This document shows, in pieces, positions 8,039 to 64,000 of a stretch of 64,000 nt of DNA. Under the pieces are notes generated by a model. That model was not told where the DNA came from and searched no databases. It saw only the letters and a program-made list of their open reading frames with translations. Position numbers and translations under genes: made by a program. Within the stretch, counting starts at the first letter, position 1, and the number at the start of each line of letters is the position of its first letter. The stretch comes from Chiloscyllium plagiosum (taxonomy: Eukaryota): NCBI RefSeq assembly GCF_004010195.1, contig NC_057756.1:1763703-1827702 (forward strand), read 5' to 3'.

Positions 8039-8062
8039 CTGAATGGTCTTTTCCATCAAGTT
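8039..8062 (-). CDS. Micro-exon 21 (24 nt, type D); KLDGKDHS
   Basis: ctttcttgcag|AACTTGATGGAAAAGACCATTCAG|gtgaat. Confidence 0.85.
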
Positions 8063-9084
8063 CTGCAAGAAAGTTGGACAATGATTTGAATCCTTATTCT
8101 GAAATCAACGTAAGTTTCCTTCTTTAAAAAAATGAACATATTGCGAGAAAGTATCAATAAATTACTTAATACCAGGTTTATCATTGGGGTATTTGTCTTT
8201 GCAATGTGTGAAGGACTTTAATGAAAATAATCATTCGTGCATGTTTATTCGTCTATATACATCACGGGTTATTATTTCATTTTTAAAATGCGGCCTCCGT
8301 GGGATAAACGACTCTTATTTCCACATAACAATATGTAATGTTTTGATGAAATATGAAGATTGTGAGTTGCACTCACTGAGTCCTTTTTCACTAGTATACA
8401 TGCCTGATTTACTTAAAAGCATAATGCATTTCAGAGTGATTGTTGCTGCATCTTTGAACTGAAGTGAAGTTATTAATGTCTCTGCTAGTGTCAGTTTAGA
8501 TTGTCAACAATTGCTCAGTCGAAAACATATTCCCTAGATATGCTACCATGCACAGAGGGACTTCAGACATGTACATCTAATACTCATTCATCCATTCTGT
8601 CCAACCATGTTTTCCATGGGCCTCAGCTATTTCTGAGTCAATTTCATCACGTGAACCTACATAAATCCATATATTTTCCAGCAAACAATACAGTACGACA
8701 TATTCTCTCATTCCAATACATCAGTATATAATAAACGTATGTAATGAGTAAATCATCCTCCTCCCTTTTCACCAATTTCAGCAGGGCAGCGCCACTAAAT
8801 TAAACGACCCCTCTCCTCCACAGTCATTATTGTGCAGCAGTTGTCTCTGTGACGAAATACAGTTTCACTGCATCGTGATTCTAAAAATTTCCTCGTCCAA
8901 GCATCCCTGATGGATTCCAATGCAATTACAGAATGTTGACATTTTAATGTATCTATTCTAACTGTCCAAAATACACAACCACAAGTTTCAGGTGAAGCTG
9001 TGCTTCACTTTTTCTTTCCTTATAGTTCAGCGAATTTTCAGCTAACTATACGATCTGTATTGTAAGATTGAGGTCATATGCAGA

Positions 9085-10220
9085 CTAGGTGATTACCGAT
9101 GATTTTGGGATGGACATAAGAACACCAAGACATCAAGTGAATTGGAAAATTAGATCCAAAATTCCTGGATTGCAGGATGGAATGGGTAAATATGGGAACA
9201 TGCTTGTCAGACTAAAGGCTTCTAATTAGAGGAGTACCTTTGAATTCAGTGCTGGGCCCATTCCTGTTTTTCACCTATATCAATGAGTTGGTTGAGAATA
9301 AACAAAGCATGAATAGAATTGGATGACAGTAAAATAAATGGTAGCGTGAACAGTGAAAACGTTTATCAGAAATTGGAGAAGCACCTTGATCAGCTGCGGA
9401 AATAGACCGAGAAATGGTAAACAGTGTTTAATATAGATTAGTGGGAGGTTTTGCAATTTGCCAAGGGAAAAAATTCATGGTGAATGGTAAAGCCTTAAGA
9501 AGTTTAGTGGAGCAGAAGCAGCTTGGAGTTCAGCTTCACAGTTCTCTGGAATTGGAGTTACAGTTAGACAGGGCATTGGAGAAAGCTTTTGGCACACTGA
9601 CCTTCTTTGGTCATGGCAGAAGTTAGCCAGGATGTTGGTGAAGTCCCAATTGGATTATTGTCTTCAGTTTAGGTCACCATGTTATAATGAAGAATGCTAT
9701 TAAACTAGAAAGAGTGCAGAAGAAATTTTCAAGAATGTTTCCTGGATTCACTGGTCTGAGTGAAATTGAGAGATTGGACAAGCATTTTTTTTTCTTTAGA
9801 GCGCAGGAGAGTGAGGGGGGGTCCTTGGAGAATTGCATAAGATTATGACAGTTTTGAATACAGTGAATGCACGCTATCTTTTCCCCAGGTTTGGAGAGTT
9901 TGCGGTGGGGGGTGGGGGTGGGTGGGGGCCGGGAATCAGAATAATTTAGAGAGAATGAAGAAAAGGGAACCTGTGAGTCAATTTTATTTCAGAGAAGGTA
10001 GAACGCATATAGAATGTACTGCCAGTGGAAGTGGGGTTAGGTACTTTTTGAATACTTAAAATGCATTTGGATAAATGTTTGGATTCCAAAGGATTAGAAG
10101 GATATGGGCCATGTGCATGGAAATGGGGTTAGGATGGACAGATATTTTCCTCTGCAAGACCATGCTGAGCGAAAGGTCCGTTTTTCCGTGCTGTAGGAAA
10201 CTATGACTTCATGACTCTAC
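9085..10220 (+). mobile_element. CR1-type LINE 3' portion, decayed
   Basis: Collinear with 6126-7115; ends ctatgacttcatgactctac. Confidence 0.85.
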
Positions 10221-11455
10221 ATTTGTCGACATTCCAGGAAGCCATCGGCTTCCCATTCAAATATGTCCATTTTGGAGCTGCTACATTATTACAACAAATC
10301 TCATCGCAAGCTGTACTTGTTTACACTAACTTGTTTTTGTTGACACGTTTCAGCTTAGCGAACTCGGTGTTGAAATGAAAACTGTACAACTAGATCTCTA
10401 ACTTGCATCTTGATTGCAACACCCGTTCCCACAATACTTTTTTTTTGTGAACGTTGATCCTAGGTGAGCGGATTTGCTTTGTGCTTTTAATGCTTGTCTT
10501 TTTTTGTAATTTGCATATCTACAACCAATTTACAATGCTTAACATAACGTTTTTATCATTCACTTCAAGCAAAATCATCATTTATTCCACTTTCAATCCT
10601 CTTCCACTCGCGACAGCACAAAATAAAAGAAAGCAAAACTGCTTGTTTTAGAACTGAAAAAGAGTTATATCGTATTCCAAATCTTAGCTGAACTTGTTTG
10701 CACAGTTGCTGTTAAATATGATTATTGACCAGAATTTTGTTGTTTAACTTCAGATCTAATATCCACAGTATTATTGTTTTTATTTCTCACTCATCTTGTG
10801 AGGCAAAGAGTTCACATGAACCCTTCAAATGTTGGGGCATTTCCAGGTGGAATGTTCAGATATGGTGCGTTTCTTGTGCAAGCCATATGGAAGCTATACC
10901 TTTTTGTCGGACAATTGCAAACTTTATCTACTGAGAAGTAAGAACAAGCCTTCTTCTTTTGTTTAGCACCTATCCAAACACGACTGCATTGCACATCTGT
11001 CATTACTATTGCATTGATTTCATTTTTTTTGTGGGGGTGAAGGTTGAAGTCTAACTGATGCAGACCATGGTAAATACCAGCACGATCACCTATTTCACCA
11101 GATGACAGATATCTCTTGTGATTCTATTTGTTATACATTAATCAACGTGAGATAGAGCTACCTTGCTTATTCCCTTTCAGATAATTGTGTTTTCTCTGCA
11201 ATAACAGCAGCAATCCAAAATCTTAACGAACGATAACATCTGGAACTCTTGTGGTGAAACTTGCTTTCAGAAACATGGCTTCACGTTTGTAATAGCATAT
11301 AGAGGACGTAAACCGAGATTTTTTTAAAAAATCACATTCACATATACTGAAATTATTGATATAATTGAAGACAGAAAATTATGAACAAAGTGTTCATTCA
11401 TCCTTCTAGGCAGAAGCAAAAAATGATCACGATGTGAATATGCTTTTTTACTCAC

Positions 11456-11482
11456 TGCACTTCAGCTTAAGATCCTCAAGTT
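11456..11482 (-). CDS. Micro-exon 20 (27 nt, type C); ELEDLKLKC
   Basis: ttgttttccag|AACTTGAGGATCTTAAGCTGAAGTGCA|gtgagt. Confidence 0.92.
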
Positions 11483-11839
11483 CTGGAAAACAATTTACAC
11501 ACAATAACAAAATGTATAATTGTTTATATGCGTTTTGTCAACTTTAAATTTAAAACTAAATTCACTTCGGCAGTAAATGCGTAATACCCCAATGTTGGGT
11601 ATTAAAAATCATCCCCATTTCCATCATACTAAATTCCTACAACAGTTCCTGAATTAAGTAGCACCCTTCTTCAATTCGTCCTGCCATCGCTGACAGTGAG
11701 AATCATGTATATATTTTGTAAAAGCAAGTGTTCGCCACAATGTTGCAAACGATCGATATTTTCTTCAAATCACGATTAAAAATCTTTTGAATGACATTCT
11801 AGAAATGTTTGGGTTTGCATTACCATTCCTTTGAAATGT

Positions 11840-12070
11840 TCATTTTGTGCGTGTAGGTGTCGCTGGTTGACCAGAATTTATTGCCCGTCCCTTGCTGTCT
11901 TTGAGAAGGTAGCAATAATCTGTGTTCCTGAACCGTCCACCTACTGTCAGTTGACCCAGTATCCTATTAAGGAGGGATTTCCAGGATTTTGACAAAGCGA
12001 CACTGAAGAAAGGCCGATATATTTTCATGTCAGGATGGTGAGATACTTGAAGGAGAACTTGAAGCTGGTA
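11840..12070. repeat. Interspersed retroposon fragment
   Basis: gtcgctggttgaccagaatttattgcccgtccc..ttccaggattttgac resembles, from recall, a common shark LINE/SINE 3' region. Confidence 0.45.
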
Positions 12071-14251
12071 CTATTAAAGCTTGAAAGGACCAAAATCATT
12101 GGTGCATCAGATTATAATTGAGATAAAATCAAAATTCATATTCTTTGAGGTTATGAAGGATGTAAGTGAAGGTTTTATTTTCCTTGTAAGATACGTGAAT
12201 TGACTTACTTAAGAATTTTTCAAAGAAGCACAATAAAACACAAGGCATTAAGTTCGAGGATAGAATTAAAAAGTTATGATAAGATGCATTAAGTTCTACT
12301 GGATATGTGAAACCATGCTCTACATTTCCTAGTTAAAACTGAAGTGAGAAAACACCGTATAGGAGATGATGACTCAATTCATTGCATATTATAATAAGAA
12401 AAAAAAGTATTTGAAGGAGGTTAGTCAGAACACATACTTAAACATAAAAAAAAATTGAGCAGGCGATGAGAGGCCCCCTTTAATTCGTCAGAATTCAAAT
12501 AGCACTATTTACTAATGAATAACTGTGGTTGTCAGCTTTATGAAAGTCAAAATAGAGATTAATGACGTTGTGAAATTTTGAGTGAGATCAGATTTAAAAA
12601 ATTCAGTGAAGAATGAACTTGATCGTTAAATCTATCCATTTCGATTACAATGTTGGTTTGTTCTTGGAGAAGATATGGCGAGGGACATTTTCTTTAGTTT
12701 GAAAGTACTATGCTTTCTTTCTTTCTCTATCTTAACGATGCTCACGTTAAGAACGAATATTATGTCGTGTTCAGTCTTCTTGCCTTCAAAGTTTCGATCT
12801 TCAGAGAACAGTTATAAGGAATGCTTCCCTTGCAAGTAGTCAGCAATTATGATTATGCAAAACTGTTCTTAAAATTGAAATTGGCCTCGATTTTTTTAAG
12901 GCATTGAACAAGGGATAATTTACAATGAATTAATCAGAAACAGTGGAAGCAAACTGTTGGATCCGAAAATGGAATTAATGCCTGAATAAATTTTAAAAAA
13001 TGAATCAATGGACGAAAGAATTAATGCATCAGTTATTTAACGATCATTAATAGAAGAAAGAATTCATCAACAAACAGGAGCCAAGTGATTCATCAGTAAA
13101 TTGTGCAAATGCAAAGGTGTCGGCTTTCAACTTCTATATGTCCCTGTCATCACTTATCCACTGAGTAGTTGCAGGTTACTTGGACTGAAGTAATAAACAC
13201 AATAATAGGTCTCAGAATTCAACATTTTAGTGATTATTCATTCCTGGGAATGCAAGCTTCCTACGTTAAACCATAATTTACTGTGGAGGGAAGTGAAGAG
13301 TCAACTAACTTGCTTGGTTACTGGAATCATCTGTCCCCAAAGAAGACCAAACGAAGTAATGATAGCAGCTTCTTGCCATAGCACATGAATGAACCATATT
13401 TTTCTTTTAAAAATCCGTTAGTACTCACAATTATGTTGTATTTATCTGAAAATTGTTAGTTCCAGATTGATTGATTTTAAATGAGAACATCTGCCTAAGA
13501 CAGATTTTATCCCAGATCCTGACATCATCACTTGGGTCTTGGAATTGATAACCTAGAGATAACATCACTAGATAGTTGCTTCAAGGTAATGGTAAGCCAT
13601 CATATCCACTTGAGAGGAAATGAAATTATCTATATCACTCAATTAAGAACGGTAAAATAAAGTTAATATTCAATGTGAAGAGGATTGTTTGCAATCGGAC
13701 AGAGATCATTGATTCATACAGCACAGAAACAAACCATCATTTCAAACAGTCTATGCTGAGACAAATGACAAACCTACGCACTCCCACCAGCATGCTCCTG
13801 TCAAAGACCCCATAAAACCTTTTTCCTATTGCTGTACTTACCCAAGCGTCTTTTAAACGTCGAACTGTACCCAAATTTACCACTTTCTCAGGAAATTCTT
13901 AGGACAAAAGGACCGATGTCTGTTTTTAAAAATGTCCTATGTCCTTTATAAAATATTTCTCCCCTCACCTTAAATATAACCCCACTAGTGCTGACGTCTC
14001 CTACACTAAGCAGAGAGCAACGAGAATTAGCACTATTTGTAAACAACCTCACTCCTACTCCAGATTTTAACAAGCTCTACAAGATTCCGTGTCAATCTTC
14101 TATGCCCCAGTGAAATAAAATGCAAGTGTATCCAACTTTTTTTGATAACTCAAACATTCCATAACTGGCGACATTTTGTGGAAACTTTTCTAAACCTTCT
14201 ATAGCTTAATGATATCCTTCCTAATAATATCCTTAATGACACCCTTCCGTG

Positions 14252-14530
14252 GGGCGGCATGTTGGCTCACTGGTCAGCACTGCTGCCTCACAGTACCACG
14301 CAAGTGGTATCGATCCCAGCTTCTGGTAACCATCTATCTGCTCTGATTTCCTCCCACAAACCAAAAATGTGCAAGTTTTGTGGATTGGCCAAGCTAAATT
14401 GCCCATAGTGTTAGGTGCAATGGTCGGGGTAAATAAAGGTAAAGGGTCTGGTTGGGTTAATCTTCGGAGCATCGATGTGGACTTCTTGGGCCAAAAGGCC
14501 TAATTCCATACTGTAGGTAATCTATTCTAT
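14252..14530 (+). mobile_element. HE1-like tRNA-derived V-SINE with internal deletion
   Basis: ggcggcatgttggctcactggtcagcactgctgcctcacag head; ggattggccaagctaaattgccc; CR1-like tail. Confidence 0.85.
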
Positions 14531-14569
14531 TACAGTGCGACTAGAACTGGGCAGCGTACTCCGATAGAT

Positions 14570-14982
14570 TTTCAAAGTTTGTGAGATGATTTGTAACTCA
14601 GGTGCTCGTTGTTATGGTTCTGTTTGCCGAGCTGGGAATTTGTGTTGCAGACGTTTCGTTCCCTGTGTAGGTGGCATCCTCAGTGCTTGGGAGCCTCCTG
14701 TTGAAGCGCTTCTTTTCTGTTTCCTCCGGCATTTATAGTGGTTTTTCTCTGCCACTTCTGGTTGTCAGTTCCAGCTGTCCGCTGCAGTGGCCGGTATATT
14801 GGGTCCAGGTCGATGTGTTTGTTGATAGAATCTGTGGATGAGTGCCATGCCACTAGGAATTCCCAGGCTGTTCTCTGTTTGGCTTGTCCTATAATAGTAG
14901 TGTTGTCTCAGTCGAACTCATGTTGCTTGTCATCCGCGTGCGTGGCGACTAATGATAGCTGGTTGTGTCGTTTCGTGGCTGG
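14570..14982 (-). mobile_element. Penelope-like element 3' end (GIY-YIG C-terminus and pLTR)
   Basis: Near-identical to the reverse complement of 52770-53177. Confidence 0.9.
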
Positions 14983-16150
14983 TTATCCTGCCCAAACTGA
15001 GCAGGACTTCCCAATTCGTATACTCAAAAGACTGAACAATGAATGCAAGCACACTAAATGCCTTTTTAACTATCCTGTCTATATGAGCAACAATGAATTG
15101 TGTTGCTGAACCCCGAGGACCTACTGTTCTACAATTTTATCTAAAACCCTATTAATTATTACATATATCCTGCCCCTGTCTGTTGTATGAAAATACAAAA
15201 TCTCATTTTCCTTAAGACTGAACTCCACCTGACACTTTTCAGGCCAATGACCCGTTTGATTAAGATAACTTTGTAATCTTAAAAAAAAATCTTCAATGTC
15301 TACTATGCGATCAATTTTGGCATTTAAGCAAATTTACGAGACATGCCTTCTATATACTGATCCAAATCATTTGTACAAATGATAAATAAATCGTTCATTT
15401 ATGCAATTCCCTGGTGTAATGCCAACTGAAATGTTATCTCAAGCATTGGTTTCCTAAGAATGGAAAGCATGTAACTGCATTGTGGCTATTCATAGATGAT
15501 TCACAAGACAAATAGCAGAAATTATTACATTTTGTCATCTGAAAAACGTTGGCCGCACGAAGTGTGCATCCAGTTTTTGGAAGAATAAGTGGCGATACAA
15601 TTCAGGAAATTTCAAAATTAAGTAAAAATAAAACATTATGAGCACTTGGTACCAATGTCTGATCCTTGATTTTTTTCCACTTCCGATTTTCCAAAATTTG
15701 CATGGTCATTCTGACGATTCTAAATTCTAAAACCATATCCATAATTTAAGAATTGACATGCAAACTGCCGCTCAACCGGTCCTTGACGGGTACAATAAAA
15801 GTTTATCTTGCACAATTCAACGTAGGATTTCCTAACCCTCGAGAAATATCAAACGGTTGTTAAACAATTAAATTCCCACCACCTATTCAATTTAGATTAA
15901 TCGAGGCTAAGAAAATGAACGTTTAAGTGCAATGATTATATCGATATCTGCTTGTGAAATCTCACCCACCGTATGTTACACGTCCAGTAGAATCATCCGT
16001 AAGTGCCACAAATCTCCGGGATATAAAACTAAATAAAAGTAATCCTTCAGTTATATGAGTTATGTTTTCTTTAACTTTCACTCATACGTCGTTAAGTGGC
16101 AACATTATGCAAAAAAATAATAAAAATTACAAAGGAGAACTTGTTTGTAC

Positions 16151-16177
16151 CTTTTTCCCTGTTACTCAGTCTTTGTT
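16151..16177 (-). CDS. Micro-exon 19 (27 nt, type B); EQRLSNREK
   Basis: tattactacag|AACAAAGACTGAGTAACAGGGAAAAAG|gtacaa. Confidence 0.9.
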
Positions 16178-16487
16178 CTGTAGTAATATAACAAAATGTA
16201 AGTGTGGGTTAGAAATATGAGGCAGAAACACATTAGTGATGCCTCATATGTACAATGTTCATGCAGTGATAAGATGATAGCAGACCATAAAAGAAGTGAA
16301 AAGAACGCAGTTTCTAAGTATTAACCATCTATTTCAGTCGTTCTCTGTTTAGTTCAATTGCCATCAAACGTATTGAAACCGATCGATCCCGTTCAGCAGG
16401 CAAGATTGCGATACTTTACGTGCATTCAGGAACATAGCGTAAACAGAAATCAACTACTGAGTTGAATGACAATTATTTAATACTCAC

Positions 16488-16523
16488 CTGACCGGTCTAG
16501 AGCGCCAATCGCATTTTCCAGTT
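16488..16523 (-). CDS. Micro-exon 18 (36 nt, type A); ELENAIGALDRS
   Basis: ttttgtttag|AACTGGAAAATGCGATTGGCGCTCTAGACCGGTCAG|gtgagt. Confidence 0.93.
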
Positions 16524-17411
16524 CTAAACAAAACGTAGAAAATCAAAACACAAATGTAGCGGGCCATTGTACCTCCTAGTTTATAAGTAAAATACTAACA
16601 TAATGTCACTTGCGTGATCTCAGAAAACATAAGACCACTTGAAAATGAATCATCACATCCGGAAGTGTAGTGATCATGCGGTAATCGAAGGAACTTTCCG
16701 ATTGTGTATACAAATCAATTTACAAAAAAAAAAACAACAAAGAAATGTGCCATGCCAGAACTAGGAATTAAAGTGAGGTGCTTTGTGGATTCGTTTTGAG
16801 ATACTGCAATATGTTGCCTCGTTTTGTTTTCATAATATCGCTGTTTTCAATCCGCTGAGTACGTCGAGCTGAACATAAAGTGAAACAGTTCCAATAGCAA
16901 AAATCGGCCTTCAAATTGCATCGCCGTGTGAGATTTTATTCTTGTACTGCAATGTTTTGCGCATTCTTTCACAAGAACAATAGTCATACAGTATTGAAGC
17001 AGACCCTTGAGCCCATACAGTCTATGCTAAGCATAATCACAATGTAAACTAGTTCCACGTGCCTGTGTTGACCCATATACTTTTAAATATTGCTTTCTGA
17101 ATTCTTGGATCATTAGTAAGAAAGCTGCTTGTTGTTCGATGAGGTGTGACTTTCTGCAGATTGCCTATGTATTGATGATACGCTCATTATTTTTCCAGAC
17201 AAAAATCATTGATCTGGCACCTATCTCTCTTTCACATTATTTAATATTTTTTCGTTCCTGTATTATGACTGATGTTTCTGCCCCGCCTTGCTTGATTGAT
17301 GATTTAAAAACGATATGCTTCAAGCACAATTCCTGCTGGTATACTGTGAGGGGACATTATGTTGACAGAGGTGATGTCTTTCCTATCAAAGCGTTTATTT
17401 CATCTACATAC

Positions 17412-17438
17412 CTTTCTCCTTCCTGATCAGCTTCTGAT
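17412..17438 (-). CDS. Micro-exon 17 (27 nt, type B'); DQKLIRKEK
   Basis: gttatctcaatag|ATCAGAAGCTGATCAGGAAGGAGAAAG|gtatgt. Confidence 0.9.
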
Positions 17439-18466
17439 CTATTGAGATAACAGATGAAAACGTTGGGCTAAAAATAAAGCTGCAATAACGCACATGCACA
17501 AAAAAAAATCCATTGACACAGAGCCATGCTTTGATATGAACATCGTTTCTCTGATGGTATTGATGGTCAATGTAATCTTGACAAACTAAACTTAAAAATT
17601 AATGGAAAACACAAAAAATGCCATTAACTTAAATAATAGTGTGATATGTAATTAACTTCATTTATGCAAATTTGCTGACAACGTGATGCATTTAAGACAA
17701 TATTGAAGTTCTCTCAGAGAACCACGATTATGTGAACGTTTTAAATCATTTTTTGCGAGAACCGTTGGGACAAATTACAAAGAAAAAAGGCAAATCTATT
17801 CTCTAAGTGTTAGAAAGGCATAATAACGTTGCCTAGAATTTATAAAGATAGAATGTTATATACAGGTAGCTGAGTATTATTCCCTTGAAAGTCCAATTAG
17901 ATTAAGTTTAATGATAAATGATTCACAATTAATCCCACAATCGTACCCTTTTGGCTGGCTAAATTAACGGCATGCACAAAGAGACACAAAAATCGTGACC
18001 TGTCAAATGATATAGAGAGAGTAAGAGAAAGATAGATTTTAACAAATACTACATGCAAATGCAGATCAGAATCTGCTGTACTTCTGCCTTGAGTTAATGA
18101 TTTATGAAACATACAACTGGAATTCTCAGAGACACATTTCGTCTAAGTTTGTTTGACTAATTGAATCCTTTTATCCATATTGCTTGCTTGGTAAAAGTAG
18201 CAGCCGTGACTATTTAACATTAAATTACTTTGTCAAATATCGATGGGAGTTTCTTCAGAACCTATTTCCATTTTCGAGGTATCAAGATCATGAACTCTAT
18301 CCCACAAGTTAGAAATGATTGAACCCTTGACCAGCAACGCCGGAGACAACTAACTTGCATGAGTTGCATTTTGCTTTAAAAGCTCATTCATATATTAAGA
18401 CGTATATAAGCCATCAAGGCAGAGAACAGTTTCAGTCCTGCGATATCAGAAGGCAACCATTCTCAC

Positions 18467-18502
18467 CTGCACGCTTGAGTGCTTCTTTTAAGTACTCCAA
18501 TT
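18467..18502 (-). CDS. Micro-exon 16 (36 nt, type A'); ELEYLKEALKRA
   Basis: gtattttgcag|AATTGGAGTACTTAAAAGAAGCACTCAAGCGTGCAG|gtgaga. Confidence 0.92.
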
Positions 18503-19849
18503 CTGCAAAATACGTGTATAAGTGAATATGTAAATATTTTGCAAACGAATTAATGCACATGCATAAATGAGGAATTAACCAAACGAAAGAATCGCAGAAG
18601 TGACATGATATATAAATGAGATAGAGAGAGTAATATAATATAGACCGAAAAGAGTTTTTGTAGTCGGGTTAATACTTCTGTGAGAGTTTCCGCCTTCTGG
18701 TATTTTGCTTGCTGTGACTGGAAACAAAAAGCTACTTTCCCTGGCATCTGCTGCAGCATTACTTTTTCGAATAAGACCCCCTCTTGCTGTAATCAGGTGT
18801 AATCACACGTTGGATGCAGAATACCTAAATATTGATATTTCTTTTTCTTTCCAAGCACAACTCACATTGAATTTTTTTTCTCATATATTCATTCGATAGG
18901 TAACAGCATTGATTAATTCATTCATGTCGATTCGTATAAAAGATGGACAATTGTAAACCATGGGATCAAGATTTGCCCATTCAAACTGTTCAGTCTGCAA
19001 ATCGTTCAGCACAGTCATCGACAATGGACCACTTCAATGCCTTCTACCCAAATCAATGCCATGACGTTGTTACAGCATTAGTGATCAGAAAGTTACCAAT
19101 TTTAGCATTAGACTGCTCAATGACTAAATGATGAATCACACCTTAATAGCCGCCTCCTAAATCTATATTGTGTCACTGATTTCGAGATTTCCCATGAATA
19201 GAGATTTGTTACAAATAGAGATCTAGGCAGTGTATTCCTTTAAGTATTTTGCAGATATATAGAGATTTCTCTGTCTTCATTTGAAGCAATTATTTATTCT
19301 TCTTGAAATCAGTGTTCAAATCCTCTTGAAATAACATATATTGTGAAATTGACAGTGTGCTATCTTCCAGTGATTAATGACATGTACGACTCTATCTTTC
19401 CCTCCGCAGTTATGATTTCAAAAGTCTTAAAACATAGTAAGAACTGTGGAAGCGGAAATCGAATGCAAAAAGTAGAAAATGCTGTAAAATAAACTCAGAA
19501 GACTTCAATGTTTCCATCTCAATGATCTTTTTTTTTCAGAACAGTTATTCAGAGGTGAAAAGAAAAGTTCAATGGACCCGAATTGTTAACTCTGATTCTC
19601 TCCAAAGGTTATACCAGTCTATTTTTCCAGCAATTTCTGTTTTTACTTTAAAAATGTTATGAGAAATGACGTGCTACACATGTCAAAGTGGAAATCTTCA
19701 GACGTTTCCAAACAACATGTTATCTGCTTATTTACTTAACAACTCAATTTCCTCGTGTGTATGCTTTACGTCTTCATTACAATGCATCTTCCAATTAGAT
19801 TTATATTATTATTAATATTTTGGAAACGTTCCATTTGGTATCAACTTCC

Positions 19850-20020
19850 ATCTCAGTGGCTCCATTGTTGGCGCTGCTGCTTCATAGCGCCAGCGTCTCA
19901 GATTCGATTCCAGTCTCGCTTGACTGTCTGTGTGGAGTTTATACATCCTCCCCGTGTCTGCGTGGGGTTCCTAACACAATCGAAAGATGTGCAGGTCACG
20001 TGCATGGACCATGCTATCTA
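19850..20020 (+). mobile_element. HE1-like V-SINE, partial
   Basis: gactgtctgtgtggagttt..ccccgtgtctgcgtggg V-domain. Confidence 0.75.
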
Positions 20021-21640
20021 ATGTGTTTTCGTTCATTTTGTTAGGCCTTCAGTACAGGTCATAATTAAAAGACTTCTGGAAGTCTGAGTTTCTAGACATT
20101 TTGGCACTTATTTATCAATTATATTGACAACAAGTCCATGAAAACTAAAAATCTGCCAAAGTGTGCAAAAAAAAATCGCTTATAGAAGTTCGTTCTTCTT
20201 TTTCTTTTGTCCAATAGACTGCATTCCCACTTTTAAAGTGTTTCCTTTTTGTTCTTGTTCTTGTACAAATTATTTAAAAGAAGACTGCTAGCTGCTTTCC
20301 GGGATGAAAAACAGAGAAAAACTTGTCTGTGCTTGCATGAGGTCTACGTTTAATGCATGATCTAAACTAATACCTAATATTTCTGCATTCTGTGCCAAAC
20401 AATGGTATGCATCATCAGATTCAAAATAGTTCTGTTCATGAGGGTGTGCAAAGTGATCGTCTTGGGATGTAATGGGGACTAATAGGATATACAGTAAAAT
20501 CAAACTTTTGTTGCAGATGTTTTGTTTTGGTCTGTGAACAAAGCATGTTGAATATTTCATGTTATTCATAATGCAAGTTTAATGTTCAACATGGCTTTTG
20601 TCATCATATGGGTGATCCATCTCAAAGGGGAATCAATTATCATCCATTTTCAGAGTGAGTTCATAAGTGGCTGTCCAGAGTGCTACTGCGAGAGTACACT
20701 CTGTGAAACTTGGGACTGATGCCGGTTATGGGAAGCAATTGTTGGGGCACTGGTGTGGCATAATGTTCTTTTTTTTTCCACCTAGCTTTTTTTTTTCCCA
20801 ATGCTAATTCTGCAAATCCTCAATGCCTTCCTGGTTGCTCCTCGTCCACTTTGGGCTGCATTGGTCTGGTGATTCGCAGGTGTCTGTGGGAATGCAATAA
20901 TTCACTAGCAAGGCCTTCACTGATGCAAATCGTCTGTCCACAATTTGATGCTCTTTCTTTAACGAATAACAGGACAATAAGTGTTGATGCTTTGTTCCTA
21001 AATAGAAACATTGGCATAACTAACACCATGCTGAACAGAAATTATAGCCATATTTCTAGGATCTGTTAAGTACCATCATTTGTATGGTTTAAAAAAACTG
21101 GAAGGGACAGAACATATTCAACTTTAACAAGTTTATAATGACTAAAAAGAAGACGGAGGTGAACTCAGAAAGCATCAGACAAATTGTTCTCGTTATTATT
21201 CGGACATTGTTCCATACCATTATAAGTGAGCGCCAAATACATTAACAAATTCAAATGAAACAGATATTTCTATTCATAGATATCTTGTACTGCTTTCCAT
21301 TCTGTTTGTTCTTATTAATTTGAAGACAGAAGGGAGATTTGTGCTATTGAGAGGCTTTTCGGCCAGGGTTATTCCAGAAATATAGTGCCTATTTCAATCC
21401 TTACCGCTCATTTGCAGTCCAAATCAAATGCAGTAAATGAATCTGTAGTCACGTTTTCACAAGTGTATAAAGTGTGCACAACTATTCCAATCAAAATCTG
21501 CAACTGAAATTAAATATTAGGGTACCTGGTAGAACAGATAATAATGTGCCAATAAATTAACAGTGCAGCAAACTAAAAATAATTGCAAAAGTTTTGCTCT
21601 ACGTCGAGTGGGAAAGTACGTATTCTTCCTTACTTTGGAT

Positions 21641-22302
21641 TGTTGTGACTGCTTTCGCTTTAAGAGGTTATTTTGTTGTGTTTTGAACATATTTGAAGAG
21701 CAGTTCTAAGGCAGAGATTCGGAGATGTTTCGGAGAAGGTAACATATTGTGAGGCTTTGCTTTTTTCAAAAGTTGGAACAAGGGAAACAGTCTGGGTGTG
21801 ACCAGCTCTCATTGACTTGGTATTCTAGTTTTTTTTTGTTTAGTTATAGGTTTAGTTTTAAACGGGAGCATTTGGGTTCTCAATTCAGTTGTAACTTCAG
21901 TGAATGTCTCATTGTGACTATTCTATCTGAGTATTCACTTGATGTTTTCTTTTCCTCCGGAATAGGAGAACTGCCAGTGAGTCTGTACCTGAATTTGCTT
22001 TTTTTGCTAAGGGATGTATTTATTGGAACTTACTGCACTTGGACAGTTAATTGGTAACAGTTACTATTAAAATAATAATACATATTATTTGGTTAAGTTT
22101 TCCAATAGTTAAGGTATTCTAAAATCATTTATCTTTTGTTTGTATTTTAACTGTAGCTTTTAAATAAATTGTGTTTTGCCTAGCATCGTGTAGGTTGGCC
22201 AATCACACCGCATCAGTTCCAACACTTTACATCTATCTTCAAAATAAGAATCAATTAGGGTATAAGTTACTTTCTTGAGGGGCTCTGGCCTGCTTCATAA
22301 TA
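21641..22302 (+). mobile_element. Solo LTR (Gypsy-like)
   Basis: TGTTGTGA...TCATAATA termini, internal AATAAA, flanks GGAT/GTAT. Confidence 0.5.
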
Positions 22303-22385
22303 GTATTCAATTTTGATAACGAACAGCGTCTTGCTACACTTTTGTATAATATTTGTAAATATTTTGAACGATTAGTAGGTAATAC

Positions 22386-22415
22386 CGTTCGAGTGACTGT
22401 CTTTTTCGTCGAGTT
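22386..22415 (-). CDS. Micro-exon 15 (30 nt, type D); KLDEKDSHSN
   Basis: gcttttgcag|AACTCGACGAAAAAGACAGTCACTCGAACG|gtatta. Confidence 0.82.
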
Positions 22416-23181
22416 CTGCAAAAGCACAACAGAATAATCAGACATGTCATAAAAAAATGAATGATAGTGAAGGCAATAATAGAAACGATTGCATGTACCT
22501 AACAATGAGATACTTGCAATGGACCTTCGCCATCGGAGTAATTGTTTATTAATAATTTTAAGGATCATCGATTTTTTTTCATTCGACTCAGAAGATGAAA
22601 CAATTCATGTACTGTCAAATCAGTTCATAATTGCAGCTTTTAAAGCCAATACGTAGCATGTTAGAGGGATATCGGAGCAGAACTATGAGCCCAATATACA
22701 CCAGTATGATTCAGTTTGTTTATATCATCTTTCTTTTTTATACTGCAAAGTTAAAATCTCATTACGACTAAAGTATTGATTTCTAGATGAACGTGTGCGA
22801 TAGTGTTAAATTATCAATATTGATAAACTCTCATAAGTGACTCATTTACTGATTAAAACACGCAGGGGAATAAACTCATCAGAAGGTTTTCAGCACAGCA
22901 TTGTATCAGCATTAGGGCAAAGTTTAGATGAATTCTACTTTCCAAATATCGGAATACTTCTTATGTACTTGTTGATGAAAACGAAAACAATGCATTAATG
23001 TTACATGGCATAAAATGCCTATACGAAAGCATGTTATTAGGAAAAACACTGTATAATAGCGATGCAATATGAGAGAGGCACACGGACTGGAATTGGTAGA
23101 AATCGGCCTTGCAGAGATGAACGGTGATTGAATCGTAAATGGCGCAATTGTCAGAGGTGCATGACGAGAATTTCAACTTAC

Positions 23182-23208
23182 TGCACTTCTGCTGAAGGTC
23201 TTCCAGTT
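23182..23208 (-). CDS. Micro-exon 14 (27 nt, type C); ELEDLQQKC
   Basis: gttattctatag|AACTGGAAGACCTTCAGCAGAAGTGCA|gtaagt. Confidence 0.92.
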
Positions 23209-23289
23209 CTATAGAATAACAGTGAAATGGTAGCAGGTTAGGGATGCAAATGTGGCACCATATCGAAGGAACAGGGAACATTCTGAACT

Positions 23290-24590
23290 CTGCCTTTAAC
23301 TGGCGATCTCTTGTGTTAAATGGAACAAAATAATCTGTGATTCATGGCTCTAGACTCTCCCAAGAAGTGAGAGACCCTAGCTACACTCAATCAAATCTCG
23401 TACGAACTGCACATTGTAGAATTAAGTTATCTTTATTCTTCCAAAGTTCAAAGAGCACATGCCAGCCTGTGGAACCATTCTTGATAAGTCAACCTGTGCA
23501 TTCCATATGTGAGTGTGTTAAACGTTCTCTGAATTATTCAAAACTCATCACCGTGCATCATTTATTTCCTGTCCAAGGCTGTATACAGTATTCTAGTGCA
23601 ATGTGGTCTCACCAACGTCCAGTGTAACTGAAGCATAACCTCTCAACTCTTGCATTCAACTCACTTCACAGTGACATTAGAGCTCAGACTCTTTAAGTGT
23701 AAAAGTAGACTTTTCACTCCAAAGAGTCCACTCCAAACATAAACACAAACTAAATTAATGTTGTTAGCCTGCTTTTGGCCTATATGCATTCAAACATTTC
23801 TTCTTCACATACTTAGTGAAATATATGCTAAACTTTTTTAAAGCATTAACATCCACCATTTACTCTCAAAGTTCATTACACATGCAAACCACTCCATCGT
23901 AATAAATATCGGCCCTCGTGTTTTTTGTTTTACATGATTATCCTTATGCATTAAAATGTACCCCGAGTCTTGTAAAAAGGCACCCGTGTGAAAATATACA
24001 GAAATACACATTATCCGTACACCTCATGATTTATACACCTCTATTAGGTCACCCCTTGCCATCCTCCACTCCAGTGGAAATAAAAAGACTATTCAGTCTC
24101 TCCTTATAACTGAAACCCTCAATTCTCAGCAACATCTTGGTAATTCGTTTCTGAACCTTCTTAGGTTTAAAATATGCTTCATATAACAGAGCGACCAGAA
24201 CTAGAGAAGTCCAGAATAAGCCTCACCTAAACATGACCTAAATATGAAGTCCCAATTCATGTACACAAATGTCTGAACAATGAAGGCAAGTATGCTAAAC
24301 GTCTTCTTCAACACCCTATCTAGTTGTGATGCAAGATTCAGAGTCATGTACCTAATCTCCTGTTTTTCTCTGTTCTACAATACTACACAAGGATCTACTT
24401 TAATTGCATAAGTCCTGCCTTTGTATGAGTTATGAAAATGCAATACCTTGCAATTATCCCAATTAAACGTTATCTCCGACCCCTCAGACAAATGATCGAA
24501 TTGATTAAAAAATTTTCATAATCTTAGATGACCTTTCTTTTCACTGTTCACTATGCCACCACTTTTGTGTCATCTGAAAACATAATAAAC
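23290..24590 (-). mobile_element. Two adjacent CR1-type LINE fragments
   Basis: Reverse-complement similarity to the plus-strand CR1 copies. Confidence 0.7.
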
Positions 24591-25221
24591 ATGACTTCTA
24601 ACCCCATTAGCTTTCCAGATTATTTATAACTGTTTGCTAACATTCTGTGATTACTGCATGAGGACATTCTGATACTTTTCTTCTTGTATCTTGTAACATT
24701 TATACAATTGGGCAACATGTGTTATGTTATTCTTTGAGTAAAAATTGACAATTTCGCACTTAAATGCATATATGCAGAACTCATGAAGGTTTACATCTGA
24801 AACGCCAATTCTCCTGCTCCTCAGATGTTGGGATGTTTCCAAAGTCACATTTTTCGATTCTGACGCTCCAGCATCTGCAATCCCCCCATCTCCAAATACT
24901 CCAGTTACCCACCTTATTACTCCTCTCCTAACTTATGCCCATCGCGTTGAATATTCCTTCAGTCCTTTTCACAACTTACAATCTTAAATACCTTTGTTCA
25001 AGCAGCGTAATTAGTAACCATGACTTCAACACTGATTTTGATATGCAACATGAAATGGTAAAATCATACGAACGATCCAAATACAACCTTTGAAGATCAG
25101 TTAAACGGATATTATCAGGCAACTTTTTATATGGTGAGTGACGATCTGGCATCAACGTACTTAGACCAAGGTATTTGGTGTGGAAAAATAGAAACCTTTC
25201 TTTTGTGCGTGCCCAGACTAG

Positions 25222-26703: not shown

Positions 26704-26730
26704 CTTTCTCCCTATTACTCAGTCGTTGTT
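26704..26730 (-). CDS. Micro-exon 13 (27 nt, type B); EQRLSNREK
   Basis: ttttttatcaaag|AACAACGACTGAGTAATAGGGAGAAAG|gtagga. Confidence 0.9.
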
Positions 26731-27400: not shown

Positions 27401-27419
27401 GGAGAAAATAAAAACATAA

Positions 27420-32022: not shown

Positions 32023-32058
32023 CTGAACGTTCCAGTGCTCCTTTCACATTTTCCAGTT
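32023..32058 (-). CDS. Micro-exon 12 (36 nt, type A); ELENVKGALERS
   Basis: tttttttcag|AACTGGAAAATGTGAAAGGAGCACTGGAACGTTCAG|gtaaga. Confidence 0.93.
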
Positions 32059-33543: not shown

Positions 33544-33570
33544 CTCTTTCCTTGCTACTGAGTCTTTTTT
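33544..33570 (-). CDS. Micro-exon 11 (27 nt, type B'); EKRLSSKER
   Basis: tttaattgcag|AAAAAAGACTCAGTAGCAAGGAAAGAG|gtgggg. Confidence 0.9.
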
Positions 33571-34707: not shown

Positions 34708-34743
34708 CTGATCGATCCAAAGCACCCCTTAAAAACTCCACTT
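34708..34743 (-). CDS. Micro-exon 10 (36 nt, type A'); EVEFLRGALDRS
   Basis: tttttttcatag|AAGTGGAGTTTTTAAGGGGTGCTTTGGATCGATCAG|gtgagc. Confidence 0.92.
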
Positions 34744-37264: not shown

Positions 37265-37291
37265 CTTTATCAAGTTTACTGTGGTCTTTGT
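37265..37291 (-). CDS. Micro-exon 9 (27 nt); DKDHSKLDK
   Basis: catccttgcag|ACAAAGACCACAGTAAACTTGATAAAG|gtaagc. Confidence 0.8.
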
Positions 37292-43662: not shown

Positions 43663-43689
43663 CTGATTCATTTTCACTTGAATCGAGCT
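43663..43689 (-). CDS. Micro-exon 8 (27 nt, type D); KLDSSENES
   Basis: atttccaccaacag|AGCTCGATTCAAGTGAAAATGAATCAG|gtaaaa; KLD start shared with 22386 and 8039 exons. Confidence 0.8.
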
Positions 43690-44352: not shown

Positions 44353-44379
44353 TGCATTTAAGCTGCAGATCTTTCAACT
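44353..44379 (-). CDS. Micro-exon 7 (27 nt, type C); ELKDLQLKC
   Basis: ttgctattcag|AGTTGAAAGATCTGCAGCTTAAATGCA|gtaagt; paralogous to 23182 and 11456 exons. Confidence 0.92.
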
Positions 44380-53274: not shown

Positions 53275-53301
53275 CTTTTTCCTTGTTGCTTAGCCGCTGT
53301 T
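53275..53301 (-). CDS. Micro-exon 6 (27 nt, type B); EQRLSNKEK
   Basis: ggcttgcacag|AACAGCGGCTAAGCAACAAGGAAAAAG|gtatgt; paralogous to 26704 and 16151 exons. Confidence 0.92.
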
Positions 53302-53333: not shown

Positions 53334-55224
53334 GTTACGAATATTAATTTCGACATTGTATTGGACCTGGACGGACCCATGAAAAAATTTGAAAAAAGGC
53401 AACCCACACCTTAATTTTTATATTTGTTTTTAGCAGATGAATAATAGCTGGGAACCGGGCGATGTTGTTGGGGACCCAAACGAAAAGCAGTTCCATGCTG
53501 ATACTCTCTCTCTGGCATCTATCCTGTCAGAAACTATACTTGACTTCTTTTCGTATTTGCCAAGGGGGTGTCAATGAAGATCTTGCAGTTATTTGTAACA
53601 GCCTAATTACGTTACGAGAGTATCGATTTAACATGAATAATTTTATTTTATATTCTGCTGTCTTTAATTCTTCCGTTAAGAAATTCTGTTTTCCTGTATA
53701 CCAACATGGTCATTGGTAACTGCATTTGTTTAGCCAACTTTTCAACTGCGGTTGAAAAGGCTTCCATATCCTTCTCATAAAATTTAGGCAATGCTGGAGT
53801 ATAGTTAAACAGATTCTCACCTGGCCTACGGCTACGATGAGATTGCTCATCATCATTCTCTTCCTGAATGAGCTTACGTTCAGCCTTCATGCCCATCCTT
53901 TAAAGCTTACTTTTCTGTCTAAGTGTCAATTTCTGGAAATCAAACGCCCTCTCTTTCGTCCTTTCCCTATCTTCTTTTCTCTCTTTTCTCTCTCTTTTTC
54001 TTTTTCATTCTGAAAAAACGATCTGTTGTTTTTTCTGTCTAAGTGTCAATTTCTGGAAATCAAACGCCCTCTCTTTCATCCTTTCCCTATCTACTTTTCT
54101 CTCTCTTCTCTCTCTTTTTCTTTTTCATTCTGAAAAAAACGATCTGTTGTTTTTCTTCCTCGGTTTTTAATCGAATATCAAACTGTTTCATTTCTTTGGC
54201 CTTTTTCTTTGTCTTTTGCCTCTACCTCAAACTGCTTCGATTTAAATTTTATGTTACCCATCTCTCAAAATTCTGATGACATTTCCAGAAAATTCAAATG
54301 CTGGGTTTGTGCTGTAATTCTCTCTCAGTTGCTTATGAAAGGAGGCAGCTCCAACCCCAGCTTGTCTGCTAATTTCACCACTTGGCCTTAAAACAATCGA
54401 AGTCACTTCTTCCCCACCCTCCCACAGAAAACTCTTACTTACTCAAAGAGCCATTGATCTCCCAAGTACTGTTTACTCCAACCGAACTCAACATGCAGAA
54501 AAAACAGACACCGGCACTTGCTACTTGTATCCTTTTATTCCAACGACCTTAATTTCAATTTGGAACCACTGAACAAATACCATAAATAGTCTTCAATGCA
54601 TTATTGATCAAGGCAGACCCCCTCAACCCATTTCAAGAAAGTAATCGGTACCCAACCTTTCCTCGTTATTTTAAACAAGTGCACAGTAGATATTCTGGGA
54701 GTGATGCAGCTGACAAACTTAGGTTTAACTAAAACAATTTATTTTCAGGATAAGCAAATGAAATACAATCAAAAGAGAACTGAATTTAAATGAACTTTAC
54801 CGGTAAAAAAAATACAACAGATTACTTCAATTTATCGATGCTTATTCAAATCCTTGCAGCAATCCCAATAAACGTTGGACAAAAATTGAAACATTCAACT
54901 CATTTTCTTACAGAAGAGATGTCAGATTCAGCAAGGAGTACATTCTTCCATGTAGCTGTTTATTTGACTAGATATGACAAAACTGATTGTTTGCCAAAAC
55001 CAAATCAAAGCTTGTGTCGAGCCGAACTATTTGATTAGGCTATTCCCATTCCATTGTACAGATATTATTTAACGTCAACCTTTTTGACTGAGGTGACATC
55101 TGTTAGCTCTACTCAAAGGCCCTCAAAACATTCAAATCTCGACTTCCGGGAGCGTCAGTGTTTACCAACCTCTAAATACAAAATCAAAGACAACTCAACC
55201 TTGTTCAAGAGACGGCATCATCAC
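53334..55224 (-). mobile_element. Truncated Gypsy element: LTR about 54600-55224 plus gag 5' part
   Basis: LPKFYEKDMEAFSTAVEKLAKQMQLP (ORF 53648-53896), a typical vertebrate Gypsy gag motif. Confidence 0.7.
53911..54153 (+). repeat. 120-bp tandem duplication within Gypsy gag
   Basis: ttttctgtctaagtgtcaatttctggaaatcaaacgccc at 53911 and 54031. Confidence 0.95.
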
Positions 55225-56023: not shown

Positions 56024-56059
56024 CACAACGCTCCAGAGCACCTTTGACATTTTCCAGTT
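56024..56059 (-). CDS. Micro-exon 5 (36 nt, type A); ELENVKGALERC
   Basis: gtattgtag|AACTGGAAAATGTCAAAGGTGCTCTGGAGCGTTGTG|gtgagt; paralogous to 32023 and 16488 exons. Confidence 0.92.
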
Positions 56060-56569: not shown

Positions 56570-56596
56570 CTCTTGTTAGTTGTTTGATATCTTCGC
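56570..56596 (-). CDS. Micro-exon 4 (27 nt); REDIKQLTR
   Basis: ttatttctccag|GCGAAGATATCAAACAACTAACAAGAG|gtatga. Confidence 0.85.
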
Positions 56597-59065: not shown

Positions 59066-59101
59066 CTGAATCCACTGGACCTTCACGAAGAGCTTTTTCT
59101 T
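59066..59101 (-). CDS. Micro-exon 2 (36 nt); KEKALREGPVDS
   Basis: tttatttcacag|AAGAAAAAGCTCTTCGTGAAGGTCCAGTGGATTCAG|gtatgt. Confidence 0.85.
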
Positions 59102-61329: not shown

Positions 61330-62585
61330 TTATTCAAAATGTTTCACAAGTTGGAGTTATTTGTTGGATTGACCAGAAAGTTTGATAAGGGCCAGGCAGT
61401 CGATCCAGTGTATGTGGATTTCAGTAAGGCCTTTCTTTAAGTTTCCACATGGGAGGCGACTCTAGGAGGATAGATTGCATGGATTCCAGTGGGTGTTGCC
61501 AAATTGGATACAGAATTGGTTTGATAGAAGGAAGCAGAGCTTAGTAGTGGAAAGATGCTTATTGGAATTGAGGCCTGCGACTAGTGGAGTTACTCAGGGT
61601 TCGGTGCTGTTCCGGGTGCTGTTTGCTATCCATATCAAGGATTTGAATGAAAACGCACAAGACACAATTAGTACGTTTGATGGTATTAGTGAGGAAGGTT
61701 ACCATAAATTGCACCGTACCCTTGATTAGCTGGGCAAGTGGGTCAAGAAATGGCAAAAGGTATTTAGTATAAGTAAGTGTGAGATCTTGCATTTTTGCAT
61801 GTCAAATCAAGGTAGCAATTTCATGGTGAATGTTGGGCCTTTAACAGTGTAGTTAAATAGAGGGACATTGGACTTCAGGTACACAGTTTTCTGAAAGTGG
61901 AGTCACAAGTAGACAGAGCAGTGAAAAAGGCTGTTGGAAAACTGGCCTTCATCACTCAGGGCATTGAGTATCGCAGCTGAGAATGTATGTTGCAGTTATA
62001 CACGACATCGGTGAGACCACAGTTGGAATATTGGGTTCAGATTTTGTCACCTTGCTACAGGAAGGATGTTAGTAAACTGGAATGAGTGCAGAAGACATTT
62101 ACACGGATGTAACAAGGACGCAATGGACTGAGTTATTGGGTGATTTTGGAGAAACGGGAGCTTATTTTTCTTTAGAGTGCATGAGACTGAGGGAGATCTT
62201 ATACAAGGACAAATCGTCATAAGAGACATGGACAGGGCGAATGCACTCATGCCTTTTCCTATGGTTGGGGAGTCGACGCCGAGATAGCATCAATTTAATT
62301 TTAGAGGGGAAAAAGTAAATTGAACTTGAGGGTCAAACTTTTTTACAGGAAGGGTTGTATGCATTGACAATGACCTGCTTGCAGAAGTTGCTGAGTAGAG
62401 TACATTGAGAGAATTTCAAAAGCATTTGGACAAATACATGGATATGAATTGTTCAGAAGTAAATGGGCCAAGTGTAAGGAAGTCGGGTTAGCGTTGATGG
62501 ATGTTTTGGTTTTTGTGGGCCAGTTTGAATAAAAGAACATGCCTCGATGCTGTCCGTTTCTACCACTCAATGCCTCTTATGACGT
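61330..62585 (+). mobile_element. CR1-type LINE RT and 3' tail
   Basis: YVDFSKAF, WIQNWF..RKQ..SGVTQGSVL..LFAIHIKDL (ORF 61475). Confidence 0.9.
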
Positions 62586-62784
62586 GTACGCATACAACAT
62601 AAAATATAAAATCCATACATTGTCTTTGCATAAGCTTAATTGTTACAGGTTACTTCATTCCTTGTTGTCTACCACATGTATTAGGATTTCTATCCACTAA
62701 GTTCTAAGTTCACTGAGCTCGGACAATTAGACAAGTTAACGAAGTAAGGCAAACATAATGAAGTTTATCGTTTGTAAGACTCAC

Positions 62785-62820
62785 TTAATTCTCGAATTTT
62801 CTCTTGCAAGGTTTCTATTG
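62785..62820 (-). CDS. Micro-exon 1 (36 nt) of coiled-coil micro-exon gene; xIETLQEKIREL
   Basis: Minus strand: cttcacattccag|CAATAGAAACCTTGCAAGAGAAAATTCGAGAATTAA|gtgagt; open in phase 1. Confidence 0.85.
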
Positions 62821-64000
62821 CTGGAATGTGAAGTAACATCATTCAGACTCATTGATAGAATCATCGGGTATAAGTAAGCATCCAAATTGAAAGAAAAATT
62901 TAATTTCACCACGAAAAGTTTTGATTAGTTGTAATGATGCATCTACGAATCAATATTGTTGAAACTGAATGGAGTATATCCCAGTGTAAGCGGCAACCAA
63001 ATTTAGTTTTAGTTGAATTTAATTAGGATGTTGCCAAGAATGCACAAAAGTAGAAAGTACGCTTCACTAACCTTCCCTTAATTTCTGTAAATTACTGAAT
63101 CTAGTCCACCTTCCTAGTCTGCTCCTCATGAATGCTGATTTATGAAATTTCCAACAATCTGTCTTGTTCTGCATAATTAAATTCAATCATTGACTATACA
63201 CAACGTCCAGCTGTGTGCTACTCAAAGTGTGTAATTTTTACATCAATTGCAATCATAACATCCGACCCAAATGTGAACAATACCTCTTCATGTCTTGTAG
63301 TCTGTTGTTATGAGATTTACCTTTTACCGTTTACATTGGTAATTCCCTTGCAGATTTCGATAGAGCACACTGTGACAAAATAATTTCGTCTAAATTTCAA
63401 AAATGTATACAGCAGGTTTATAATCAGCTCACTACTGGATCAAGTTTATGTTAACTGAGTTAAACTGGTGTTCAATTGTTGTACCATCTTCAGTACAATC
63501 CGATTCTCCCACTTTTATACATACTAAAAATTGTAAAAATAATCCCAGTCTTATACATCCTATAATTGGTCTCCCGCATCTAATAACCACTCTGCAACTT
63601 TGTGCATATTGCTTCTCATCCACATTTTATTAATCTGCAAAGCAGCACAAAAAATGCATATTGATATCTCTTTTCTACCGTCACTTGTAAACATTAGCTT
63701 CTAACTAAACGAGTGAAGTACATTAATTGTCAAGATTTTTGCACAGCATCTATACTATTTAATGAATAAATATATAACAGTTTCTTCTGACGGTGTCTTT
63801 TGTGGCGTTGAATCTACAGAAGCACGCCATAGCTAAGTTTGTGACCATGTCTAGTTTGAAATGTATTTCTGAAGGAGAAAACATCAAAACACGTAACTGC
63901 TCCTCTGTGAGTTCATACGAAAACAAATTTGACATCTTATTTCCACACAGCTATATTTCTTTCGATATACACGTATAAATCAAACTTGTCAGAGAAATTG

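Follow-up and report, generated by a model that had tools for sequence, protein, structure and literature searches.

Microexons in the window

The DNA analyzed herein (the window, 64,000 nt, G000:C47:1763703-1827702) is AT-rich, repeat-filled vertebrate DNA from Chiloscyllium plagiosum, and its minus strand carries a series of very short exons. These microexons belong to an array of at least 151 exons on the same contig (C47) that likely forms one gene, referred to here as the C47 gene, ending in an exon for a SPRY/B30.2 domain. Positions outside the window are given as extended coordinates, calculated as the contig position minus 1,763,702.

Within the window, 19 minus-strand segments bounded by AG and GT run from 62820 to 8039, with seven of 36 nt, eleven of 27 nt, and one of 24 nt. 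All of them have a length divisible by three, are of phase 1-1, and are open in a single frame. When the 36-nt exons are designated A, the 27-nt exons B, and the 24-nt exon x, the order from 5' to 3' is AABABBBBABABBABABBx, and a strict alternation of A and B is not kept. The window exons and the terminal exon are as follows.

62785..62820, minus strand: 36-nt microexon, A type, first in the window
59066..59101, minus strand: 36-nt microexon, A type, divergent, with Gly-Pro
56570..56596, minus strand: 27-nt microexon, B type
56024..56059, minus strand: 36-nt microexon, A type, with Cys at its end
53275..53301, minus strand: 27-nt microexon, B type
44353..44379, minus strand: 27-nt microexon, Cys-ending subtype
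43663..43689, minus strand: 27-nt microexon, polar subtype
37265..37291, minus strand: 27-nt microexon, B type
34708..34743, minus strand: 36-nt microexon, A type
33544..33570, minus strand: 27-nt microexon, B type
32023..32058, minus strand: 36-nt microexon, A type
26704..26730, minus strand: 27-nt microexon, B type
23182..23208, minus strand: 27-nt microexon, Cys-ending subtype
18467..18502, minus strand: 36-nt microexon, A type
17412..17438, minus strand: 27-nt microexon, B type
16488..16523, minus strand: 36-nt microexon, A type
16151..16177, minus strand: 27-nt microexon, B type
11456..11482, minus strand: 27-nt microexon, Cys-ending subtype
8039..8062, minus strand: 24-nt microexon, last in the window
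G000:C47:1296626-1297144 (L074:2924-3442), extended -466556 to -467079, minus strand: terminal SPRY/B30.2 exon, 173 codons, phase 1 (PF00622, E 3e-15)

The two preferred lengths were already visible in the initial splice-site scan of the minus strand, in which seven AG to GT segments of 27 nt and eight of 36 nt were found and other lengths occurred one to three times. Intron-only splice models were then trained on exons from beyond the window. With these, the minus strand yielded nine segments of 27 nt and eight of 36 nt, the other lengths between 15 and 60 nt averaging 1.11 (maximum 3), whereas the plus strand yielded three and none (mean 1.18, maximum 4). The full models trained outside the window recovered 18 of the 18 window exons of 27 or 36 nt, with two matches on the plus strand and two weak extra calls in the window, at 7117 and 56729; this recovery is a partly independent test, since the training exons had originally been found by window-seeded models.

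Extent of the array and evidence for coding

A region of 1.16 Mb, composed of the window and fetched flanks, was scanned. The array reaches far past both window ends, from extended +322,573 (G000:C47:2086275) to -462,604, covering about 790 kb of the minus strand, whereas the plus strand of the same region gave four matches at the same thresholds. From 154 candidates, three with stops were removed, and the remaining set of at least 151 exons, including up to 13 lower-scoring or odd-length exons added by hand, predicts 1,509 residues with 17% Glu, 16% Lys, and 15% Leu. Ninety-two of these exons are of 27 nt, 53 of 36 nt, and one of 21 nt. The junctions across the locus are AB in 48 cases, BA in 49, BB in 39, and AA in two.

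Three of the 154 candidates have a stop in the phase-1 coding frame, versus 93 and 77 in the other two frames, a count that is partly circular as the seed exons were picked as open. In 17 close exon pairs, which are not mutually independent, the differences by codon position were 9/24/57, and codons with a single change were synonymous in 37 cases and non-synonymous in 23.

The three high-scoring 27-nt segments with in-frame stops are located on the minus strand at extended 320543, 162369, and -449140. They are possibly chance matches, dead copies, or truncating exons. Recurrent 54-nt "exons", which are present on both strands, were set aside as likely derived from long interspersed elements.

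Heptad pattern of the two exon types

Hydrophobic residues occupy positions 2, 5, and 9 in 89, 91, and 96% of the 36-nt exons, respectively. Similarly, position 4 is hydrophobic in 74% of the 27-nt exons. A 36-nt exon joined to a 27-nt exon therefore places a hydrophobic residue at each seventh position and spells three heptads. The power at period 3.5 was 6.7 in the real exon order versus 2.38±0.44 after shuffling, and the real value was reached in none of 200 shuffles. Among the 316 Leu, Ile, and Met residues, 141 have another at i+7, compared with 44 at i+5 and 56 at i+9. The loss of periodicity upon exon shuffling indicates that exon order is constrained to hold the heptad register. Seven of the 27-nt exons end with a Cys at a core position, and Cys-ending exons were also found in two paralogs and in the matching stretch of a skate relative, P0176.

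The terminal B30.2 exon and its cartilaginous-fish family

The terminal SPRY exon is located about 4 kb beyond the last microexon, and its phase matches that of the array. PRY was not detected by Pfam in this exon, and the C47 gene was not among the matches scored (150 of 292) in a PRY search of the genome. In a profile search, the best solved relative of the domain was BTN3A1 (E 1e-33), with TRIM21 close behind (E 4e-30).

The four closest B30.2 relatives within the genome, from 150 of 270 candidates scored, are at C47:994524, C47:4577507, C37:22229896, and C37:20720094. Each of these four paralogous exons is preceded by a 27/36-nt array, giving at least five family genes including the C47 gene. 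Relatives were also found in databases, under stand-in names, from chimaera, skate, electric ray, catshark, and bamboo shark. The bamboo shark model P0171 is near-identical to the paralog at 20.72 Mb of contig C37. When eight of the relatives (P0164, P0176, P0007, P0167, P0170, P0037, P0174, and P0171) were scanned against Pfam, SPRY was the only domain in eight of eight. An atlas search with P0176 returned SPRY clusters only, an atlas search with the N-terminus of P0164 gave no match, and a search with the rod of P0164 returned chimaera models alone.

A tree of B30.2 domains placed all 14 labelled family members on one side of a branch, apart from the shark BTN-type and TRIM/RING-type domains, with a support of 100 in the Shimodaira-Hasegawa-like approximate likelihood ratio test (SH-aLRT); the tree is a quick, midpoint-rooted one of 89 of 192 B30.2 domains, with 103 left out, and the family was picked by similarity to the query. 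An origin of the family from BTN and one from TRIM may both be compatible with this tree. No description of the family was found in the literature searched, a collection with few subscription papers that was screened by title and abstract opening. The C47 gene is likely a member of an undescribed cartilaginous-fish family, a variant of the tail design of butyrophilins and BG proteins. The code of 9- and 12-residue exons would be older than the split between sharks and chimaeras.

Several arrangements among the paralogs were observed. Two of them lie between butyrophilin clusters, at G000:C37 20.72-20.78 Mb and 22.23-22.36 Mb. The latter spreads about 30 exons across 130 kb and starts close to the start of the model of its catshark ortholog. 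Three 21-nt exons, nearly identical to one another, are found directly ahead of the B30.2 exon of paralog C47a, at L126:3820-6004 (C47 about 989.8-992.0 kb). A paralogous array on the opposite, plus strand (extended +465951 to +661350) opens with a few 27/36-nt exons and continues from about +537 kb as a series of 21-nt exons of one heptad each. The middle of the P0164 rod has a tandem repeat rich in Thr and Asp.

Secreted or cytosolic product

The array and the B30.2 exon are predicted to specify a soluble and probably secreted coiled-coil rod, about 1,500 residues long and with a B30.2/SPRY tip, and no Ig (immunoglobulin), membrane, or RING part was found; we give this reading as a whole an even chance. 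Secretion taken by itself is likewise given an even chance. The first or signal exon of the C47 gene was not located in six scans, in which ATG, signal, and paralog 5' comparisons remained at background. A signal-exon candidate at +353637 was rejected as it sits in a stop-riddled stretch, which we take to be a Gypsy integrase tail.

The same gene might instead encode a cytosolic rod without a signal peptide, which would carry a B30.2 head and serve the cytoskeleton or trafficking as a scaffold, much like zipper protein or an enterophilin. We consider this alternative rather unlikely, though the strongest of those weighed. The unlocated signal exon is consistent with it, as is the in-frame ATG in the first detected exon; Met is present at the same position in other exons too, which lessens the value of that ATG. 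A signal-like start is missing from six of the eight relatives, and the array of paralog C37a starts near the start of the model of its catshark ortholog, again without a signal. B30.2 is normally cytosolic in BTN and TRIM proteins. Furthermore, zipper protein is described as a soluble BG tail in the part of PMC4046983 consulted. Against a cytosolic location, a hydrophobic, signal-like start was recognized by eye in skate P0176 and chimaera P0164, and these two starts are mutually alike (BLOSUM 18 over 13 residues). Both relatives share the sub-branch of the C47 gene, although the support of that sub-branch is only 91. Many of the database models are probably incomplete at the 5' end, which would reduce the weight of the six relatives, and Cys recurs at core positions. 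In residues 1-70 of P0164, two basic clusters that by eye look like furin sites come after the signal-like start.

Continuity of the array

The reading of a secreted rod ending in B30.2 requires the window exons to be spliced to the terminal exon. No array exons were found between -86 and -170 kb, with 77 exons before this interval and 74 after it, all on one strand. The interval contains a 69-kb segment (C47 about 1,597,600-1,667,100; extended -166112 to -96571) bounded by two 500-N gaps. Its GC content of 0.43-0.50 differs from the 0.385±0.019 of the locus, and it has four C2H2 zinc-finger open reading frames (ORFs). It is likely a misplaced foreign contig inside the gene. The first downstream exon is 3.8 kb from the gap.

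It is improbable, more so than a cytosolic product, that the half holding the window (77 exons, +322 to -86 kb) is a gene of its own, a mis-scaffolded piece without a splice to the B30.2 exon, or a relic. The zinc-finger segment and its two gaps do lie between the halves, and 59 of 75 upstream exons have another upstream exon as the nearest neighbour. For the other 16 the nearest neighbour is a downstream exon. Exon subtypes are common to both sides of the gap, with one window exon 81% identical across it, the intervening segment is compositionally foreign, and no B30.2 or other terminal exon was found ahead of the gap. In addition, C47 has three family B30.2 exons for three arrays, among the 150 of 270 candidates scored. 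The open frames and the synonymous bias speak against a relic. Judged from the common strand, the insert composition, the shared subtypes, and the lack of a B30.2 exon before the gap, both halves and the B30.2 exon are likely one gene.

Search for butyrophilin, BG, and TRIM components

The preliminary description had raised the possibility of a chondrichthyan BG/butyrophilin-like receptor and had suggested looking beyond position 64000 for signal, Ig, and transmembrane (TM) exons. Its statement that the window has neither an Ig nor a TM exon agrees with our scans of the 64,000 nt, and beyond the window none of the three exon kinds was located. With 16 Ig-bearing queries, tblastn gave no match in the 1.16 Mb, where small assembly gaps remain and the first exon was not located; in the controls, IgC was found in six of six true shark butyrophilin stretches. 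Similarly, 48 RING-bearing queries gave no tblastn match in the same region and a motif scan gave none, in a search run without a positive control from a RING locus. None of 144 upstream ORFs matched Ig, RING, or B-box families in Pfam. The TM-exon scan found no TM-like phase-1 exon in the 340 kb upstream, with two of five BTN controls found and three missed. Its one match at the locus is spurious, lying inside the array where the frame reads through low-complexity sequence.

The genome-wide linkage tests were divided. None of 37 matches to the BTN IgC family PF22705 and none of 37 matches to class I of the major histocompatibility complex (MHC) is on C47; the MHC-I matches are on C37 and small contigs, and a search for MHC class II gave no match anywhere in the genome. 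The MHC/BTN synteny that had been proposed for checking is therefore absent for the C47 gene and present for two paralogs on C37, the MHC-I and butyrophilin scaffold. Butyrophilin-like genes are found at G000:C37:28831501-28899500 on this scaffold, with one on C3, and the TM exon is 120 nt in two of them. These true shark butyrophilins have an IgC exon, a clear TM exon in two, about three to six tail exons mostly of 21 or 27 nt, and a B30.2 exon.

The C47 gene has the phase-1 heptad microexons of a butyrophilin, in lengths of 27/36 rather than 21/27 nt, and a terminal B30.2 exon whose linkage to the window crosses scaffold gaps; it has no detected Ig or TM exon, and its B30.2 domain does not group with BTN. 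Of the BG design, the single IgV with TM was not found and a 21-nt exon occurs once in 151, though the opposite-strand paralog has 21-nt exons. The N-terminal RING/B-box of a TRIM protein was found neither at the locus nor in any of the eight relatives. These comparisons suggest that the C47 gene resembles the BTN/BG tail in its workings and fails membership as a butyrophilin receptor. The resemblance to a heptad-exon tail, as originally described, holds in the phase, the three heptads of a 36+27 pair, and the B30.2 end, and the shark BTN tails of 21/27 nt agree with it. Very doubtful, and the weakest of the alternatives, is a type I receptor of the BG/butyrophilin kind with Ig and TM exons that lie farther upstream or in a gap or have diverged too far to be recognized: the shark BTN tails, BTN3A1 as the best solved relative, and the two paralogs between BTN clusters favor it, and it is opposed by the controlled upstream search, by C47 being free of BTN IgC and MHC-I matches, by the separate B30.2 clade and the eight Ig-free relatives, by the nearly equal score of TRIM21, and by the opposite-strand array, which starts about 145-150 kb upstream (+465 to +473 kb) and so bounds the probable 5' region of the gene.

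Exon skipping and rod length

Every exon had been described as frame-symmetric so that any subset could be skipped. The frame part of this is borne out. Of the 151 exons, 136 end in G, 12 in A, and three in C; as no exon ends in T, the junction codon is never a stop and every exon skip is stop-free. The heptad register behaves differently, being lost when the order is shuffled. It is held only by skips of a multiple of seven residues, and skipping of arbitrary subsets therefore keeps the frame but not the register. Skipping of an A+B pair does keep it, as had been noted, because 36+27 nt equals 21 residues or three heptads.

Isoform sets in the databases contain internal deletions of nine residues in four of four species with such sets (ray, catshark, bamboo shark, and chimaera). 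The ray isoforms also have a deletion of six residues, and several other isoform pairs differ only N-terminally. The deletion in bamboo shark corresponds to a 27-nt exon independently called at C37:20726913. Between two chimaera models there are 13 indels: four involve 9 residues, another four involve 12, and one involves 18, the remaining four having other sizes. Length tuning by splicing, which the preliminary description had also proposed, thus agrees with these exon-sized differences, and they are mostly single 9-residue exons rather than A+B pairs. In-frame microexon skipping is likely in the C47 gene by analogy with the relatives, in which it is annotated. Rod length is changed by exon duplication between paralogs.

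RNA reads (sets X5, X6, and X7) on window positions 11000-27500 and on the B30.2 region gave repeat-derived signal only and no exon junction, with about 2% of read set X5 and 6% of X6 sampled and no read placed from X6, so this result is uninformative. The DNA-like read set X1 reproduces most of the B30.2 region.

Comparison with known systems

The eight predicted chondrichthyan proteins with coiled coil and SPRY share the B30.2 clade of the C47 gene and the units of 9 and 12 residues, and they represent the actual family. These models have 230-1,697 residues, and none is established as a model or ortholog of the C47 gene.

TRIM proteins with PRY-SPRY likewise have a coiled coil followed by B30.2, and the databases name the relatives "TRIM39/58/69-like" or "A33-like". 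They differ in that their coiled coils are short, and no RING or B-box was found in the C47 locus or in eight of eight relatives. Enterophilins are cytosolic, Ig-less mammalian proteins with a long leucine zipper and B30.2, and are far shorter. Enterophilin-1/SNX1 appears as a reference in the part of PMC13749957 consulted.

Butyrophilins, including those of shark on C37 and C3, share the phase-1 heptad microexons and, after them, the terminal B30.2, but they have a handful of tail exons versus at least 151 here, and the C47 gene has its own 36/27 code, no Ig or TM exon found, and its own B30.2 clade. TSBP1 (C6orf10) is another many-exon, MHC-linked gene. Its exons are tiny, and it is not known to have a B30.2. 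A 26-exon transcript is given in the available part of PMC6607989. Mammalian BTNs are described as having a few heptad repeats and then B30.2 in the portions seen of PMC4046983 and PMC5938342. The same portion of PMC4046983 gives BG tails of 13-36 exons of 21 or 24 nt. These tails differ in length from gene to gene and through alternative splicing, which takes the form of intron read-through and truncates the tail, according to the section of PMC5938342 consulted. Chicken BG and zipper protein resemble the C47 gene in having a long coiled-coil tail of variable length in many tiny exons. BG has one IgV and a TM and, in the sources as far as seen, is contrasted with the B30.2-ending BTNs, whereas the array of the C47 gene is 4-10 times longer, uses units of 9+12 residues, and keeps B30.2.

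Proposed mechanism

In the preferred reading of one secreted product, each pair of a 36-nt and a 27-nt exon adds three heptads, and parallel pairing of the chains would extend over the whole rod. In an extracellular protein, the core Cys of the recurring 27-nt subtype may cross-link the chains. At a length of up to about 220 nm, the rod could act as a spacer or fibrous scaffold that presents clustered B30.2 heads to a ligand. Its length would be set by exon duplication between paralogs and by in-frame exon skipping within the gene.

Several points weigh against this reading. Beside the N-terminal evidence, the quick tree, and the imperfect TM and RING controls given above, the array crosses 500-N scaffold gaps, and exon order and single-gene status rest on the scaffolding. 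The isoforms are database-predicted models, of which the two from chimaera may be annotation versions, and single skips of nine residues break the heptad register.

A broader proposal, which we offer tentatively and hold to be less probable than the rod itself, is that the family makes secreted B30.2-tipped filaments of up to about 220 nm, that it is older than the shark-chimaera split, and that it arose from a BTN-like tail that had shed Ig and TM; combinatorial skipping among at least 150 microexons would set length and register, as in a spliceable molecular ruler. If the preferred reading is right, the C47 gene would be an extreme microexon gene, in which more than 150 exons of 27/36 nt, amounting to about 5 kb of coding sequence, are spread over about 790 kb and are mostly invisible to annotation. 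It would provide a natural test of the ordered spliceosomal inclusion of long microexon runs and of splicing as a tuner of coiled-coil length, and would inform the evolution of BTN/BG tails. It would also be unusual for B30.2, normally found in the cytosol, to be secreted at the tip of a giant rod. The joining of the window to a B30.2 gene, the recognition of a likely misplaced contig, and the Ig/TM test with its controls are new in this study.

Retroelement pieces

Decayed retroelement pieces, which we assume to be Gypsy-like, are located within or upstream of the gene at window positions 53911-54154 and at L039:9500-9990, and one of them mimics a signal-peptide exon.

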